The position numbers and the translations under genes were made by a program. From an uncultured bacterium (GTDB lineage: Bacteria > Desulfobacterota > Binatia > HRBIN30 > CADEER01): 64,000 nucleotides of DNA. The notes under the pieces were generated by a model. It saw only the letters and a program-made list of their open reading frames with translations. It was not told the DNA's origin and searched no databases. The stretch covers positions 476,110 through 540,109 of the forward strand of contig CAVRIA010000004.1 of NCBI GenBank assembly GCA_963721115.1, read 5' to 3'. Positions 28,378 through 35,529 of the stretch are shown here, one piece after another. The first letter of the stretch is position 1, and each line of letters opens with the position of its first letter.

Positions 28378-29761
28378 TCAGCGCGCCGCCGGCTCGCACT
28401 CCCAATCGCGCAGGTGCTGGGTCGCCGCGATGATGGCGGTAGAGGGGAGGCCCTGGCGGCGGCATTGCGCTTCGAACTCGTCGACCGCCGCCGGCGCCGG
28501 CACGCCCTCGCCGGGATCCTCGCCGAGGTCGTAGAGTGCCGGCCCCTCGCGGCGCACGAGCAGCTTGGTGCTCGCCGGCGATCGCCGCCGTGACGTTCTG
28601 CCGATAGCGCGGCTGCATGTCGGCCAGGTGCGGGTAGTGGAAGTGCTCGGCCAGCGCGATCGGATGCTCGGCGCGCCAGCCGGCGTCGAGGATCGTGCCG
28701 CCGAGATCACCGCCCCCGCCGATGGCCCGGATCAGACCGAACAGATCGCGCGTGCTGACCACGTCGTCCACCACCCCGGCGTCCCGCCCCGGGTGGTGGA
28801 TCCACAGCGGCACGTGCAGGTGGGTGTCGTAGACGGAGGCGTCGTGCAGGTAGAGATCGTGCTCGCCGAAGGCCTCGCCGTGGTCGCTGGTGACGATCAG
28901 CACCGCGTCGTCGAGCAGCCCGTCCGCACGCGCCGCCTCGTAGAAGTCGCACAGCTTCTCGTCCATCAGCTCGATGGCGCGGTGGTAGCGGCCGAGCAGC
29001 AGCCGGCGGTTGATCTCGGAGAGTCGAAAGCCGGGCTTCAGGTAGGTGTGCGAGCCGAGACGCGACATGGCCCACGGGAAGAGCAGGTTCTCGACGCAGC
29101 CGCGCGGGGTTCGAAACGGGCGCAGGATCGAGCCCGGCGTGGGAGGGTAGGGGGCGTGGACGTCGTACAGGTTGGCGAACAGGAAGTAGGGCGTTCCGGA
29201 GCTCCGGTGCTGCCGCATGCGGCCGAGGACGTGGCCGAGCGCCAGGCGGTCGGCGGGCATCAGGGCGCGCGCGAACGTCGACAGGAAGCGGCGGCTCTGC
29301 TGCTGGGCGGGGTGAAAGAACCCCGTGCTGCGGACGTGGCGCCGGAAGCGCGGCTTGGCGGCGGCGAGGAAGAGCGCGAAGGGATTCCAGGCGCCGGCCT
29401 CCGACATCGGTTGCGCGCGGTGCCGAAAGCCGCGCATGAGGCCGGGGATGGAGCCGTCGAACATGAAGTTGCGCGTGACGCTCTCGGTCTCGTATCCCGC
29501 CGCGGACAGCAGCTCCGCGACGGTCGGCGCGGCGCCGGCATAGGCCATGTGCCCGAAGCGCGCCCCGTGCTGGGAGGGGAGGAGGCCCGTGAAGATGCTG
29601 GCGTGGGTCGGCAGCGTCCAGCACTCCGTGGCATAGGCGCGGCGAAAGAAGGTCGTCTCGCCGCTCAGGCGGTCGAGAAAGGGAGTGCGAGCGCCGCAAC
29701 CCCCGCACGAAGCGAGGGAGCGCGCGCGCATCGAATCGACGACCAGCAGGACGACGTTCAT
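28378..29761 (-). pseudogene. sulfatase-like (alkaline-phosphatase superfamily) hydrolase/transferase, frame switch near 28568-28575
   Basis: Reads MNVVLLVVDSMRARSL...TLPTHASIFTGL...IVTSDHGEAFGEHDLYLH. The C-terminus continues in another frame (KLLVRREGPALYDLGEDPGE). No signal peptide or TM segment was seen. Confidence 0.65.
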
Positions 29762-29805
29762 GTGCAAAGGGGGCGCCACCCATTGCCGGCGCCGCGAGAA
29801 ATCTA

Positions 29806-29834
29806 TTGCACGAATCTATCAAAATGCCTACAAG
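29806..29834 (+). promoter_or_regulatory. possible sigma70-like promoter (TTGCAC-17 bp-TACAAG) in the only AT-rich patch of the sulfatase / MBOAT divergent region
   Basis: Read directly. The match to consensus is weak. Confidence 0.25.
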
Positions 29835-29936
29835 TATCGAATCAGAAGATACCCGGAGGGCAAACGCCGGTCTCGCGGGATGTGTCCGGACGGGACCGTG
29901 ACATCGCGCCGCGCCGCGTGATAGGGGCTTGGCGTT

Positions 29937-32802: not shown

Positions 32803-32809
32803 GCGGGCG

Positions 32810-34370
32810 ATGCCGCAATCGGGCCCTCTCCACGACCTTCTCGAGCAGTCGGCGCGCCGCTGGCCGCAGCGCACGGCGGTGACGGAGGCGGGCGGCGGGT
32901 CGATCTCGTACGGCGACCTGGCCGCACTCGCCGGCCGGACGCGGGACCACCTGCGGCAGTTGGGCGTCGGCCCCGGCGATCGCGTCGGACTCTGTCTGCC
33001 GAAGTCCATCGACGCCGTCGCCGCGATCTTCGGCGCCCTCGCGTGCGGCGCCGCGTACCTCCCACTCGATCCCGACGCCCCCGCCGCGCGCAACGCCAGC
33101 ATCCTGCGGGACGGCGCGGTTCGGGCGGTGGTCGCCGCGGACGAGCAGCTCCAACCGCTGCGAAGCGGATTGGCGGCCGCAGGGGAGGGGCCGCGGCTGC
33201 TGGCGCTCGATCGGGTTGGGGGTGGCGACGGCCTGCGCGCCGCCTTGAGCCGCGAAGCGAGGGCGGGCGGCTCGCCCGGAACGTCCGCCCGCGGCGACCC
33301 GGAGGCAATCGCCTATCTGCTCTATACCTCGGGCTCGACCGGAACGCCGAAGGGCGTCGTGCTGTCACACCGCAATGCCACGAGCTTTCTCGACTGGTGC
33401 TCGCGTACCTTCGAGCCGCGTGCGGACGACTGCTTCTCCTCGCACGCGCCGTTCCACTTCGATCTCTCCGTCCTCGACCTCTACCTTGCGATCAAGCACG
33501 GCGGCAGGCTGGTTCTCTTTGGGGAACGAGTGGGGAAGGAGCCGGGCCGGCTGGCGGAGGCGATCGCGGCGGAGCGCATCACCGTGTGGTACTCCGTGCC
33601 GTCCGTCCTCCGCCTACTGGTCCGCTACGGCGAGCTCTCACTCCACGACTGCTCGGCGCTGCGTCTCATCCTCTTCGCCGGCGAGGTGTTTCCGGTCGCT
33701 CCGCTGCGGGCGTTGAAAGAGATCCTGCCGCGGCCGCGCTACTTCAACCTCTACGGCCCCACCGAGACCAACGTCTGCACCTTCTACGAGCTGCCCGAGC
33801 GCATCCCCGCCGAGCGCCGCGAGCCGTTTCCGATCGGCCGCGCCTGCGCACACGCGCGCGTCGCGGTCGATCGACGAGCGCGGAGAGCGGGTCGCGCCGG
33901 GATCGAGCGGAGAGCTCTGCGTGAGCGGTCCCGGCGTGATGCCGGGGTACTGGAATCTTCCCGAGCAGAGTGCGCGTGCCTTCCTGCGGTTGGAGGGAAG
34001 CGAGCGCTGGTACCGGACGGGAGACATGGTGCGCGAGGACGGCGACGGCAATCTCATCTTCCTGGGCCGTCGCGATCGCCTGGTGAAGCGGCGCGGCTAC
34101 CGTGTCGAGCTGGACGAGATCGAGGCCTGCCTCCAGCAGCATCCGGCGGTCCGCGAGGCCGGCGTGGTGGCGTTGCCGGACGAAGAGTCCGGGGTGCGGA
34201 TCAAGGCCGTCCTCGGCTGCGAGCAGCGCCTGTCGATCATCGCGTTGAAACGCTTCTGCGCCGAGAATCTTCCCACCTACATGGTTCCGGACGTGTTCTG
34301 CTTCGAGACGTCGCTGCCGAGGACGGCGACGGACAAGATCGACTATCGCCGTCTCGCCGAGATGCCCTGA
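32810..34370 (+). pseudogene. stand-alone amino-acid adenylating enzyme (DltA / NRPS A-domain type), one frame switch near 33862-33872
   Basis: A-domain cores are present: AYLPLDP, LLYTSGSTGTPKGV, FHFDLSVLDLY and NLYGPTETN. After the shift come GELCVSGPGVMPGYWN, YRTGDMV, GRRDRLVKRRGYRVELDEIE, LPTYMVP and TATDKIDY. Confidence 0.85.
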
Positions 34371-34383
34371 GCGGGTTCGCGGA

Positions 34384-35529
34384 ATGGACTTCGGCCTGAG
34401 CTCCCAGCAGGAAGCGCTCAAGACGGCGGCGATCGACTTCGCCCGCAAGGCGCTCGACCACGACCCCGCCGCCGCCGAAGGGGCGGGAACCTTCCCGCGC
34501 GAGATCTGGCGCCGCTGCGCCGACTTCGGTCTGCTCGGTCTGCCGGTTCCGGAGACGTACGGCGGCCGCGGCGCCGATCTGACATCCACCGTGGCGGTGA
34601 TGGAGGGCCTCGGGTACGCGTGCCGCGACCGGGGTCTGCTCTTCTCGATCGGTGCCCACCTGTGGACCTGCGTCGTGCCGATCCTCGTGCACGGTACCGA
34701 GGAGCAGAAGCGCCGCTACCTCCCGCGCCTGTGCGGCGGCGAGCTGATCGGCGCCAACGCGGCGACGGAGAGCGAGGCGGGGTCGGACGTCTTCGCCCTG
34801 CGCACCCGGGCGGTTCGCGACGGCGAGGTCTACGTGCTCGACGGCGCCAAGAGCTTCGTCACCAACGCGCCGATCGCCGATCTCTTCGTCGTCTACGCGA
34901 CCATTCGCCCCGGCGGCGGCGCTCTCGGGGTCTGTGCCTTTCTGGTCGAGCGCGCCACGCCGGGAGTCGAGGTCGGCAAGATCGTCGAGAAGATGGGTCT
35001 CGCGACCTCGCCGTTGGCGGAGGTCGTCTTTCGCAACGCGCGCGTTCCGGCGGAGAACCGCCTCGGGCGGGAAGGGCGGGGCGCCGACGTGTTTGCCTCC
35101 TCCATGGAGTGGGAGCGCGGTTGCATCCTGGCGGGCTGTCTCGGCGCGATGCAGCGGCAGCTCGAGGAGTGCGTGGCGCACGCGCAGCGGCGCAAGCAAT
35201 TCGGGCAGGCGATCGGCAAGTTCCAGTCGGTCGCCAACCGCATCGTCGACATGAAGCTGCGGCTGGAGACGTCGCGGGTGTTGCTGTACCAGGTCGCCTG
35301 GCGAAAGGATCGGGGCCTGGACGCCGAGGCGGAGGCGGCGATGGCGAAGCTGCACGTGTCGGAGGCGTTCGTTCAGTCCAGCCTCGACGCCATCCAGATC
35401 CACGGCGGCTACGGGTACACCACCGCGCTTCCCTACGAGCGCGAGCTGCGCGACGCGGTCGCCGGTACCCTCTACTCGGGCACTTCCGAGATCCAGCGCA
35501 ACATCATCGCCCGGGCTCTCGGCCTGTGA
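34384..35529 (+). CDS. acyl-CoA (or acyl-carrier-protein) dehydrogenase family flavoprotein
   Basis: 381 aa. The sequence reads GANAATESEAGSDV...FVTNAPIADLFVVYA...YSGTSEIQRNIIA. The stop TGA is the first three bases of repeat copy A1. Confidence 0.9.
   Translation: MDFGLSSQQEALKTAAIDFARKALDHDPAAAEGAGTFPREIWRRCADFGLLGLPVPETYGGRGADLTSTVAVMEGLGYACRDRGLLFSIGAHLWTCVVPILVHGTEEQKRRYLPRLCGGELIGANAATESEAGSDVFALRTRAVRDGEVYVLDGAKSFVTNAPIADLFVVYATIRPGGGALGVCAFLVERATPGVEVGKIVEKMGLATSPLAEVVFRNARVPAENRLGREGRGADVFASSMEWERGCILAGCLGAMQRQLEECVAHAQRRKQFGQAIGKFQSVANRIVDMKLRLETSRVLLYQVAWRKDRGLDAEAEAAMAKLHVSEAFVQSSLDAIQIHGGYGYTTALPYERELRDAVAGTLYSGTSEIQRNIIARALGL

Follow-up and report, generated by a model that had tools for sequence, protein, structure and literature searches.

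Known bacterial surface acylations attach acetyl, D-alanyl, glycyl or fatty acyl groups. In the Dlt system, DltB, a membrane-bound O-acyltransferase (MBOAT), takes D-alanine from the carrier protein DltC and passes it first to a tyrosine of DltX, within its FXYXXF motif, and then to a serine of DltD (PMC12148441). Other MBOAT/SGNH systems work without a carrier protein and keep the MBOAT and SGNH proteins separate, fusion to an SGNH domain being found with AT3 proteins; in PatA-type MBOATs, the FXYXXF motif is part of the MBOAT itself and lies at its C-terminal end, beyond two additional helices (PMC12148441). Carrier proteins also serve the oxidation of proline: PltF loads L-proline on PltL, and Bmp3, of which 6CXT is the structure in complex with Bmp1, oxidises carrier-bound proline to pyrrole (PMC8857579). 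Here we describe a four-gene, 5.6-kb module from an uncultured bacterium of the Binatia, located in a stretch of 64,000 nucleotides with a G+C content of ~70% (positions 476,110 to 540,109 of contig CAVRIA010000004.1, hereafter the window). The module encodes a fused MBOAT-SGNH membrane protein together with a carrier protein, an adenylating enzyme (hereafter the ligase) and a dehydrogenase resembling those of the pyrrole pathways. We favour, with moderate confidence, a reading in which a proline-to-(halo)pyrrole carrier cassette feeds the fused MBOAT-SGNH relay, which would deliver the group to an extracytoplasmic acceptor.

The four genes are co-directional on the plus strand and separated by gaps of only 4, 7 and 13 nt: the fusion (29937..32525), the stand-alone 90-aa carrier (32530..32802), the stand-alone ligase (32810..34370) and a 381-aa flavin-dependent dehydrogenase of the acyl-CoA dehydrogenase (ACAD) fold (34384..35529). 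An FADH2-dependent halogenase gene (35752..37263, minus strand) is convergent with this operon. Listing and translation of the open reading frames (ORFs) recovered every gene that an earlier annotation made from the letters of the DNA (hereafter the sequence-only reading) had placed in this region. That reading had interpreted the locus as Dlt-like and had taken the A4 core of the ligase, FDLSVLD, to point to DltA rather than to proline. However, this core is identical in PltF, which is the best stand-alone match of the ligase in the PDB (6o6e, 1.6e-64), and the DltA models of NCBIfam scored 141.7 and 133 bits, far under their cut-offs of 476 and 559.85. Nine hand-mapped pocket positions (D, L, L, Y, L, A, L, V and C), assigned with what we take to be the GrsA numbering, are also the same in PltF. 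The resulting string, DLLYLALVC, is common to 42 of the 54 module ligases, and the others differ from it at one position. The sequence of the ligase thus resembles that of the L-proline ligase PltF, and proline is its probable substrate.

The dehydrogenase was compared to the same databases. Its PDB matches were AnaB (4irn, 5.9e-128), Bmp3 (6cxt_B, 3e-106) and PigA (5zw0, 1.6e-103), and its two top NCBIfam scores were obtained with the PigA (465.5 bits; cut-off 500) and RedW (445.8 bits; cut-off 650) models. By similarity, the gene is a member of the family of prolyl-carrier dehydrogenases that is typical of pyrrole pathways and includes AnaB, Bmp3 and PigA. The carrier gave its best PDB matches with the Bmp1 carrier (6cxt_A, 1.3e-7) and PltL (3.8e-5), compared to 0.008-0.07 for DltC, and the DltC model NF003464 reached 18.9 bits for a cut-off of 68. 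The carrier and the dehydrogenase therefore match the two chains of a single crystal complex, 6CXT. Ser48 of the carrier (codon at nt 32671-32673), the site of phosphopantetheine attachment in the LDSL motif, is invariant in 24 of 24 homologues. A relationship to the carrier of the ornithine-lipid OlsHI system was considered and rejected: the ACP_for_OlsHI model gave 112 bits, below its cut-off of 130, and the Pfam-scanned neighbours included neither a GH3-like OlsH nor an alpha/beta-hydrolase OlsI partner (PMC12493201).

The convergent halogenase, whose functional weight was passed over by the sequence-only reading, is close over its full length to Mpy16 (5buk, 9.2e-157, 525.8 bits), ChlB4 (1.1e-155) and PltA (5dbj, 2.2e-150, 504.7 bits). 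Mpy16 and PltA halogenate pyrrolyl-S-carriers, and this similarity suggests a comparable substrate for the enzyme of the window. The alignments cover residues 60-503 and all begin at residue ~60; the true start of the gene is probably near 37090. As the ligase is PltF-like, the dehydrogenase AnaB/Bmp3/PigA-like, the carrier Bmp1/PltL-like and the halogenase of the PltA/Mpy16 type, the module most likely makes a (halo)pyrrole-2-carboxyl-S-carrier.

The protein to which this carrier would deliver its load is encoded by one uninterrupted ORF, 862 aa from a GTG codon; the database copy begins at ATG 29946 and is 859 aa long. A word-indexed protein search retrieved 2,464 relatives, the best 120 of which are 827-931 aa long and align with 92-98% query coverage and 43-50% identity. 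When 1.84 billion cluster representatives were searched exhaustively with a profile, 1,565 of them matched at E ≤1e-30, the top 150 being nearly all full-length. With an intact ORF and more than 76 full-length homologues, the fusion is a genuine single protein and not the product of a missed stop or of a frameshift, an eventuality that had been raised when the fusion was first noticed. Its C-terminal half is Lipase_GDSL_2 (PF13472, residues 626-833, 35.2 bits; cut-off 32.9). Because sequence models gave no MBOAT match for the N-terminal half, its assignment rests on fold comparison and on the alignment of profiles with hhalign. An AlphaFold2 model built from 26 homologues (mean predicted local distance difference test, pLDDT, of 78.5) had as top Foldseek matches DltB (8jem_A, E 1.7e-7) and 6bug_C, followed by HHAT, PORCN, DGAT1 and LPCAT3. 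A second aligner superimposed model residues 56-436 on DltB residues 10-412 with a Z score of 21.3 and a root-mean-square deviation of 3.9 over 364 residues. Hhalign against a canonical MBOAT of the same genome (probability 49%, E 1.7e-4) paired WRRVN309IYWKDF with WRRWHVSLSFW, and H352 with the histidine of GLWHG. These models indicate that the N-terminal half of the fusion has an MBOAT fold of the DltB/HHAT/PORCN type.

In the model, the MBOAT core spans residues ~56-436 (nt 30102-31244) and includes N309 and H352; two extra membrane helices follow (residues ~458-478 and 490-513), then a (G/S)YYE motif (residues 542-545, nt 31560-31571) and the SGNH domain (residues ~618-850, nt 31788-32486). 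Conservation was assessed on 77 fusion sequences. H275, R306, R307, N309, K313, H352 and Q355 of the MBOAT domain are invariant in all of them, as are S630 (nt 31824-31826), N666, D823 and H825 of the SGNH domain, among which S630, D823 and H825 make up the Ser-Asp-His triad. Block V of this domain reads D-x-H in the 77 members (D823-K-H825, nt 32403-32411) instead of the usual D-x-x-H, and a block III asparagine could not be identified by eye. In the linker, Y543 and Y544 are invariant, E545 is found in 76 of the 77 sequences and G542 in 75.

A natural split form of the module was found in a genome of the same order (G025, contig C93; L091:6372-13103). There, the MBOAT protein has 454 aa and stops where the DltB-like core stops, and two tandem paralogous SGNH proteins each consist of a short positive segment and one hydrophobic helix, then the sequence AGYYEGL or AGYYQDL. 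The carrier, the dehydrogenase and an intact, single-frame ligase of 511 aa are also present. One possibility is that the two SGNH copies serve two acceptors. An N-terminal signal-anchor normally places the rest of a protein outside the cytoplasm. The helix at residues ~490-513 of the fusion is the counterpart of the split-form anchor, the helix at ~458-478 links this anchor with the MBOAT core, and two arginines are found in the loop that separates the two helices. From the split-form signal-anchor and its equivalent in the fusion, we infer a periplasmic location for both the SGNH domain and the GYYE motif. The existence of both a natural fusion and a split form also shows that this MBOAT and this SGNH protein work together.

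We modelled the complex between the MBOAT domain (residues 25-530) and the carrier, both being supplied as alignments. The complex obtained a score of 0.69, compared to 0.00 for the best of 3 controls; the runs agreed in at least 85% of contacts and the pLDDT of the partner was at least 80. This score is reached by 58 of 80 solved complexes and by 2 of 110 mismatched pairs. In the model, the part of the carrier that contains Ser48 (residues 47-50) is in contact with MBOAT residues 317-329, just past the N309 motif. The model supports, but does not show, the binding of the carrier to the MBOAT domain; as a solved DltB-DltC complex exists, the result may reflect that likeness. No DltX-like small ORF ending in an FXYXXF-type motif was found between 27.5 and 38.5 kb of the window, and the fusion has no terminal FXYXXF. 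Its only F.Y..F sequence (residues 320-325) was rejected as an acyl shuttle because of its alignment with the core DYLYIP motif and its position within the predicted cytoplasmic docking helix. We propose instead that Tyr543 or Tyr544 of GYYE is the functional counterpart of the shuttle tyrosine. As a separate observation, the canonical AlgI/PatA-type MBOAT of the same genome (L092:448-1857, equivalent to G000:C6:178647-180056) ends with FIYFAF, an FXYXXF motif, and two further PF03062 genes share its contig.

Linkage was examined in 38 species loci in which the fusion gene is flanked by ≥6 kb of sequence on either side. The fusion, carrier, ligase and dehydrogenase genes are found together in 35 of these 38 well-flanked loci, 27 of which have the gene order of the window. 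The survey proposed by the sequence-only reading thus confirmed the association, and the dehydrogenase, which had been viewed as a loosely attached modifier, is a regular member of the module. Of the 38 loci, 4 also contain a halogenase homologue (≥40% identity), either within the module or next to it. In several lineages that are unrelated to each other, the halogenase gene sits within the module itself, for instance between the fusion gene and that of the carrier or of the dehydrogenase. Clustering of the neighbouring ORFs in 64 loci gave clusters for the fusion (56 loci), the dehydrogenase (44), the ligase (38) and the halogenase (9), as well as a 20-locus cluster that is apparently an antisense ORF over the ligase gene. 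Beyond the module genes and the halogenase, no cluster exceeded 5 of the 64 loci, and no ketosynthase or polyketide synthase (PKS), soluble acyltransferase or thioesterase was conserved near the module. The host is a diderm, as BamA and LpxC were both detected above cut-off. Together with the fold and the linkage, these data uphold the notion that a diderm has a carrier-dependent module for MBOAT/SGNH acyl transfer in which one polypeptide combines the two membrane functions.

The distribution of the fusion was determined with one genome per species, phyla being taken from record titles. The family is present in at least 533 species genomes from at least 12 phyla, including Pseudomonadota, Acidobacteriota, Gemmatimonadota, Planctomycetota, Verrucomicrobiota, Chloroflexota and Bacteroidota/Rhodothermota; Calditrichota, Hydrogenedentota, Eisenbacteria, Binatia and delta-proteobacterial lineages are further hosts. 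Cultured bacteria such as Pseudothauera rhizosphaerae CC-YHH848, Mesorhizobium muleiense CGMCC 1.11022 and Pelomicrobium sp. G1 carry the module, and its compactness and its presence in such bacteria make the question directly testable. Among close relatives of the host, a protein search (E ≤1e-25) detected the fusion family in 0 of 17 same-family and 1 of 13 same-order genomes, a tally that takes in the unpublished genome G003, which gave no match; the protein search was used as a DNA-level search of these relatives was swamped by ACAD paralogues and by a genomic repeat. None of 300 genomes sampled across the phylum had the fusion at E ≤1e-60. The module is therefore rare and patchy in this group, a pattern that fits horizontal spread. 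Eight module contexts were read with precomputed Pfam labels. In four, the surrounding genes are of a polysaccharide, exopolysaccharide or O-antigen-like type: GT2 and sulfotransferases in one, PEP-CTERM PrsK/R/T and Bac_transf in another, Wzx and GT4 in a third, and nucleotide-sugar genes and GT2 in the last. Two contexts have unrelated neighbours. In one further context, on a metagenome contig, the fusion has no cassette nearby and lies between PMT_2 glycosyltransferase and sulfatase-fold genes.

The family assignments, linkage, fold and residue conservation described above can be assembled into a mechanism. The PltF-like ligase would adenylate proline and load it on Ser48 of the 90-aa carrier, the ACAD-fold flavoenzyme would oxidise prolyl-S-carrier to pyrrolyl-S-carrier, and in this genome the PltA/Mpy16-like halogenase would then halogenate the pyrrole ring, probably by chlorination or bromination. 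Docking of the carrier would take place on the cytoplasmic side of the MBOAT domain, and Asn309 and His352 would there catalyse transfer to an outward-facing nucleophile, for which Tyr543 or Tyr544 of GYYE, beside the last membrane helix, are the candidates. The acyl group would then pass to Ser630 of the SGNH domain, presumably in the periplasm, and finally to a hydroxyl or amine of an envelope or secreted polymer. In its widest form, to which we subscribe more tentatively, this proposal implies a widespread modification of envelopes or exopolymers: bacteria of at least 12 phyla (at least 533 species genomes) would attach pyrrole-2-carbonyl groups, halogenated here and in about a tenth of the loci, in ester linkage to an extracytoplasmic polymer or lipid, by means of a carrier, a fused MBOAT-SGNH protein and a new GYYE shuttle that replaces DltX/FXYXXF.

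Several observations weigh against this proposal. Polysaccharide genes do not adjoin the module in the window. The ligase is frameshifted in this assembly. The dehydrogenase falls just below the PigA cut-off, and its top match, AnaB, performs a two-electron oxidation only, so that the group could be pyrrolinyl rather than pyrrolyl. For the fusion, the Pfam scan returned no PF03062 match at E ≤0.01, a whole-genome PF03062 scan detected three other genes but not this one, and a 26-sequence family profile searched against PDB sequences gave marginal GDSL matches and no MBOAT. The profile searches suggested by the sequence-only reading placed PF13472 above cut-off and recovered AMP-binding, but Pfam and NCBIfam scans of the fusion returned no MBOAT, DltB, AlgI or DltD model, and Pfam gave only PF13472, and not the DltD family PF04914, for its C-terminal domain. 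The closest structures to the SGNH domain are hydrolases such as TesA (TesA-type folds, Z ~14 over model residues 618-850), so hydrolytic release is possible. Lastly, the GYYE linker was modelled at pLDDT <50 and the motif differs from the published FXYXXF shuttle (PMC12148441).

The state of the ligase gene bears most directly on whether the module operates in this strain. The sequence-only reading had described the stand-alone adenylating enzyme as a single gene at 32810-34370; the enzyme is there, but in two frames. Its N-terminal part, with motifs A1-A7, is encoded in frame 0 (32810..33868; AMP-binding, residues 11-353) and its C-terminal subdomain, with motifs A8-A10, in frame +1 (33870..34370; AMP-binding_C in the ORF 33921-34370). 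The one-base frameshift maps to ~33866-33870, where the sequence reads GTC GCG GTC [G] ATC GAC GAG, and past PIGRACAHARVAV the frame-0 translation is Arg/Ala-rich nonsense. When two intact homologues (of 530 and 522 aa) were used as tblastn queries, the switch, between frames +2 and +3, fell at 33846-33870, with two contiguous segments and zero residues lost. The divergent sulfatase-fold gene (28378..29779, minus strand; Pfam Sulfatase, 3e-24) is likewise frameshifted, one extra base near 28566-28570 having to be removed to reach its natural end at 28378. Both breaks had gone unnoticed in the sequence-only reading, which passed over them. Each of these two frameshifts may be either an assembly or sequencing error or a real lesion, and the module may be inactive in this genome unless the break in the ligase is a sequencing error. 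The recC, recB and recD genes (window 17726-26698) are also legible but interrupted, over several frames: recB is split over at least four segments (TIGR00609) that alternate between two frames, and the frame of RecC_C differs from that of the RecC N-terminal domain. Either the consensus is poor in this part of the assembly or the operon is decaying.

The module could then be a dead relic, in which a real ligase frameshift leaves the carrier unloaded in this strain. We give this the highest probability among the alternatives, although it is rather unlikely. The ligase break is clear, the sulfatase-like neighbour and recB/recC are broken as well, and the genome has no second prolyl-carrier dehydrogenase, a second ligase not having been searched for. 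However, the C-terminal piece of the ligase is as conserved as the N-terminal piece (60-62% and 59-60% identity, respectively, to the intact homologues) and keeps motifs A8-A10, including the A10 lysine motif and the sequence PRTATDKID, and every other gene of the module is intact. Moreover, the breaks are confined to 17.7-34.4 kb, whereas AcrB (3 kb; 4817-8650) and BamA, elsewhere in the genome, are intact, as is the fusion gene (2.6 kb), a pattern that fits a locally poor consensus.

A second alternative, which together with the third is the main rival of the favoured reading, concerns the fate of the acyl group: the MBOAT-SGNH protein might release free (halo)pyrrole-2-carboxylate or a small ester to the periplasm as a diffusible compound, no polymer being decorated. 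Halogenated pyrroles are typically bioactive small molecules, and such an export function would agree with a self-contained module that has no conserved acceptor-synthesis gene nearby, with the absence of polysaccharide genes from several loci including the window, and with nearest SGNH structures that are thioesterases and esterases. Nevertheless, a soluble thioesterase would suffice for release, as in the Bmp1 case, and half of the eight contexts inspected lie in polysaccharide-type loci. In addition, the characterised bacterial MBOAT/SGNH pairs all acylate a polymer (PMC12148441). On balance we consider simple export improbable and retain transfer to an envelope or secreted acceptor.

The nature of the group is the object of a third alternative, namely that the carrier delivers a dehydroprolyl (pyrroline-carboxyl) group, as made by AnaB, or plain prolyl, and not an aromatic pyrrole. 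Among the PDB matches of the dehydrogenase, AnaB ranks first (430 bits, compared to 350-359 bits for PigA and Bmp3) and the halogenase is absent from most loci; but PigA and RedW provide the two top NCBIfam scores, and PltA/Mpy16-type halogenases occur in or beside the module in several unrelated lineages as well as in the window, so that a non-aromatic group appears quite unlikely. Finally, D-alanyl transfer as in teichoic-acid D-alanylation, with DltA-like aminoacyl loading and an optional change made by a generic acyl-CoA dehydrogenase, parallels the ligase, carrier, MBOAT and SGNH logic and finds DltA structures among the ligase matches (1e-28 to 1e-33), but is very hard to sustain, as PltF matches 30 orders of magnitude better with an identical pocket, the DltA and DltC models score far under their cut-offs, and the dehydrogenase, carrier and halogenase are all those of pyrrole pathways; the Dlt-like view of the locus was right in its architecture and wrong in its chemistry.

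The genes around the module show no comparable association. The sulfatase-like gene is divergent and has the sulfatase fold (alkaline-phosphatase superfamily), as the sequence-only reading stated, but homologues occur near the fusion in few loci only, and it was rejected as a conserved partner. Its product has no signal peptide and reads W-T-L-P-T-H where sulfatases have C-x-P-x-R, with a threonine at the nucleophile position, as in phosphotransferases of the superfamily. An element of ~180 bp (window 35527-35706) lies between the convergent dehydrogenase and halogenase genes; it recurs in more than 20 places in the genome with 80-89% identity (contigs C4, C5, C8, C11 and C20), some copies forming tandem arrays (C5:513236-514193 and C8:326049-326809). 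Divergent from the halogenase gene is that of an F420-dependent luciferase-like oxidoreductase (37055-38248, plus strand; TIGR03619, 244.5 bits, above cut-off), followed by a SnoaL-like gene (38338-39141, minus strand), and neither recurs near the module in other loci. One metagenome-assembled genome (L095:16728-18839) encodes, a few genes downstream of its module, a fusion of a Trp_halogenase-type domain with the ATPase domain of an ABC transporter.

The searchable literature yielded no description of the module or of the predicted surface chemistry, and nothing relevant for MBOAT with pyrrole-2-carboxyl, MBOAT with carrier protein and proline, or DltB with PltF. As far as we have seen, the split form in a genome of the same order, GYYE as candidate shuttle, the docking model and the mapping of the frameshift are new here. 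If the proposal is correct, surface polymers esterified with an aromatic pyrrole, in some cases a halogenated one, would represent a new envelope chemistry. The charge, hydrophobicity and UV or redox behaviour of the surface could be altered, as could resistance to phages and antimicrobials and the matrix of biofilms, for instance in Accumulibacter-type wastewater bacteria. Such a chemistry would also assign a structural role in the cell to the thiotemplated pyrrole cassette, which is known only from the synthesis of small-molecule antibiotics and pigments.

Among known systems, the pyrrole cassettes PltF/PltL/PltE/PltA (pyoluteorin), PigI/PigG/PigA, RedM/RedO/RedW, Bmp4/Bmp1/Bmp3/Bmp2 and AnaC/AnaD/AnaB share with the module the same ligase, carrier, dehydrogenase and halogenase families, the mapped ligase pocket being identical in PltF. 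In known pyrrole pathways, the pyrrolyl-S-carrier is consumed by a ketosynthase or PKS, by a soluble acyltransferase or by a thioesterase and a small molecule is built, whereas the only conserved partner of the module is the membrane MBOAT-SGNH protein, with no PKS or ketosynthase conserved nearby.

The Dlt system of Firmicutes (DltA, DltC, DltB, DltX and DltD), which acts on teichoic acids, resembles the module in having an ATP-dependent ligase that loads a small carrier, a carrier that docks on an MBOAT of the DltB fold (predicted here for the module) and an SGNH partner outside the membrane. The relay logic, from thioester to enzyme-bound ester to acceptor, is also shared (PMC12148441). However, Dlt transfers D-alanine, whereas the group of the module would be proline-derived, oxidised and here probably halogenated. 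A dedicated flavoenzyme is obligatory in the module, the MBOAT and SGNH functions are on one polypeptide, the MBOAT is beyond the reach of PF03062, the hosts are diderms of at least 12 phyla, and an invariant GYYE is present where neither DltX nor FXYXXF was found.

The O-acetylation systems PatA/PatB (peptidoglycan), AlgI/AlgJ/AlgX (alginate) and WssH/WssI (cellulose) likewise associate an MBOAT with a periplasmic SGNH protein in diderms and have two helices beyond the DltB-like core; unlike the module, they use acetyl-CoA as donor, have no carrier, consist of separate proteins and have an MBOAT that ends with FXYXXF (PMC12148441). OatA-type AT3-SGNH proteins, like the fusion, unite a membrane acyltransferase and an outer SGNH domain in a single polypeptide, but their membrane domain is AT3 instead of MBOAT, and they use acetyl-CoA as donor and no carrier protein; their acyl-Tyr intermediate is formed on an extracytoplasmic loop (PMC12148441). 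The invariant GYYE motif is thus a candidate for a third solution to the acyl-Tyr relay, after those of DltX/PatA and OatA.

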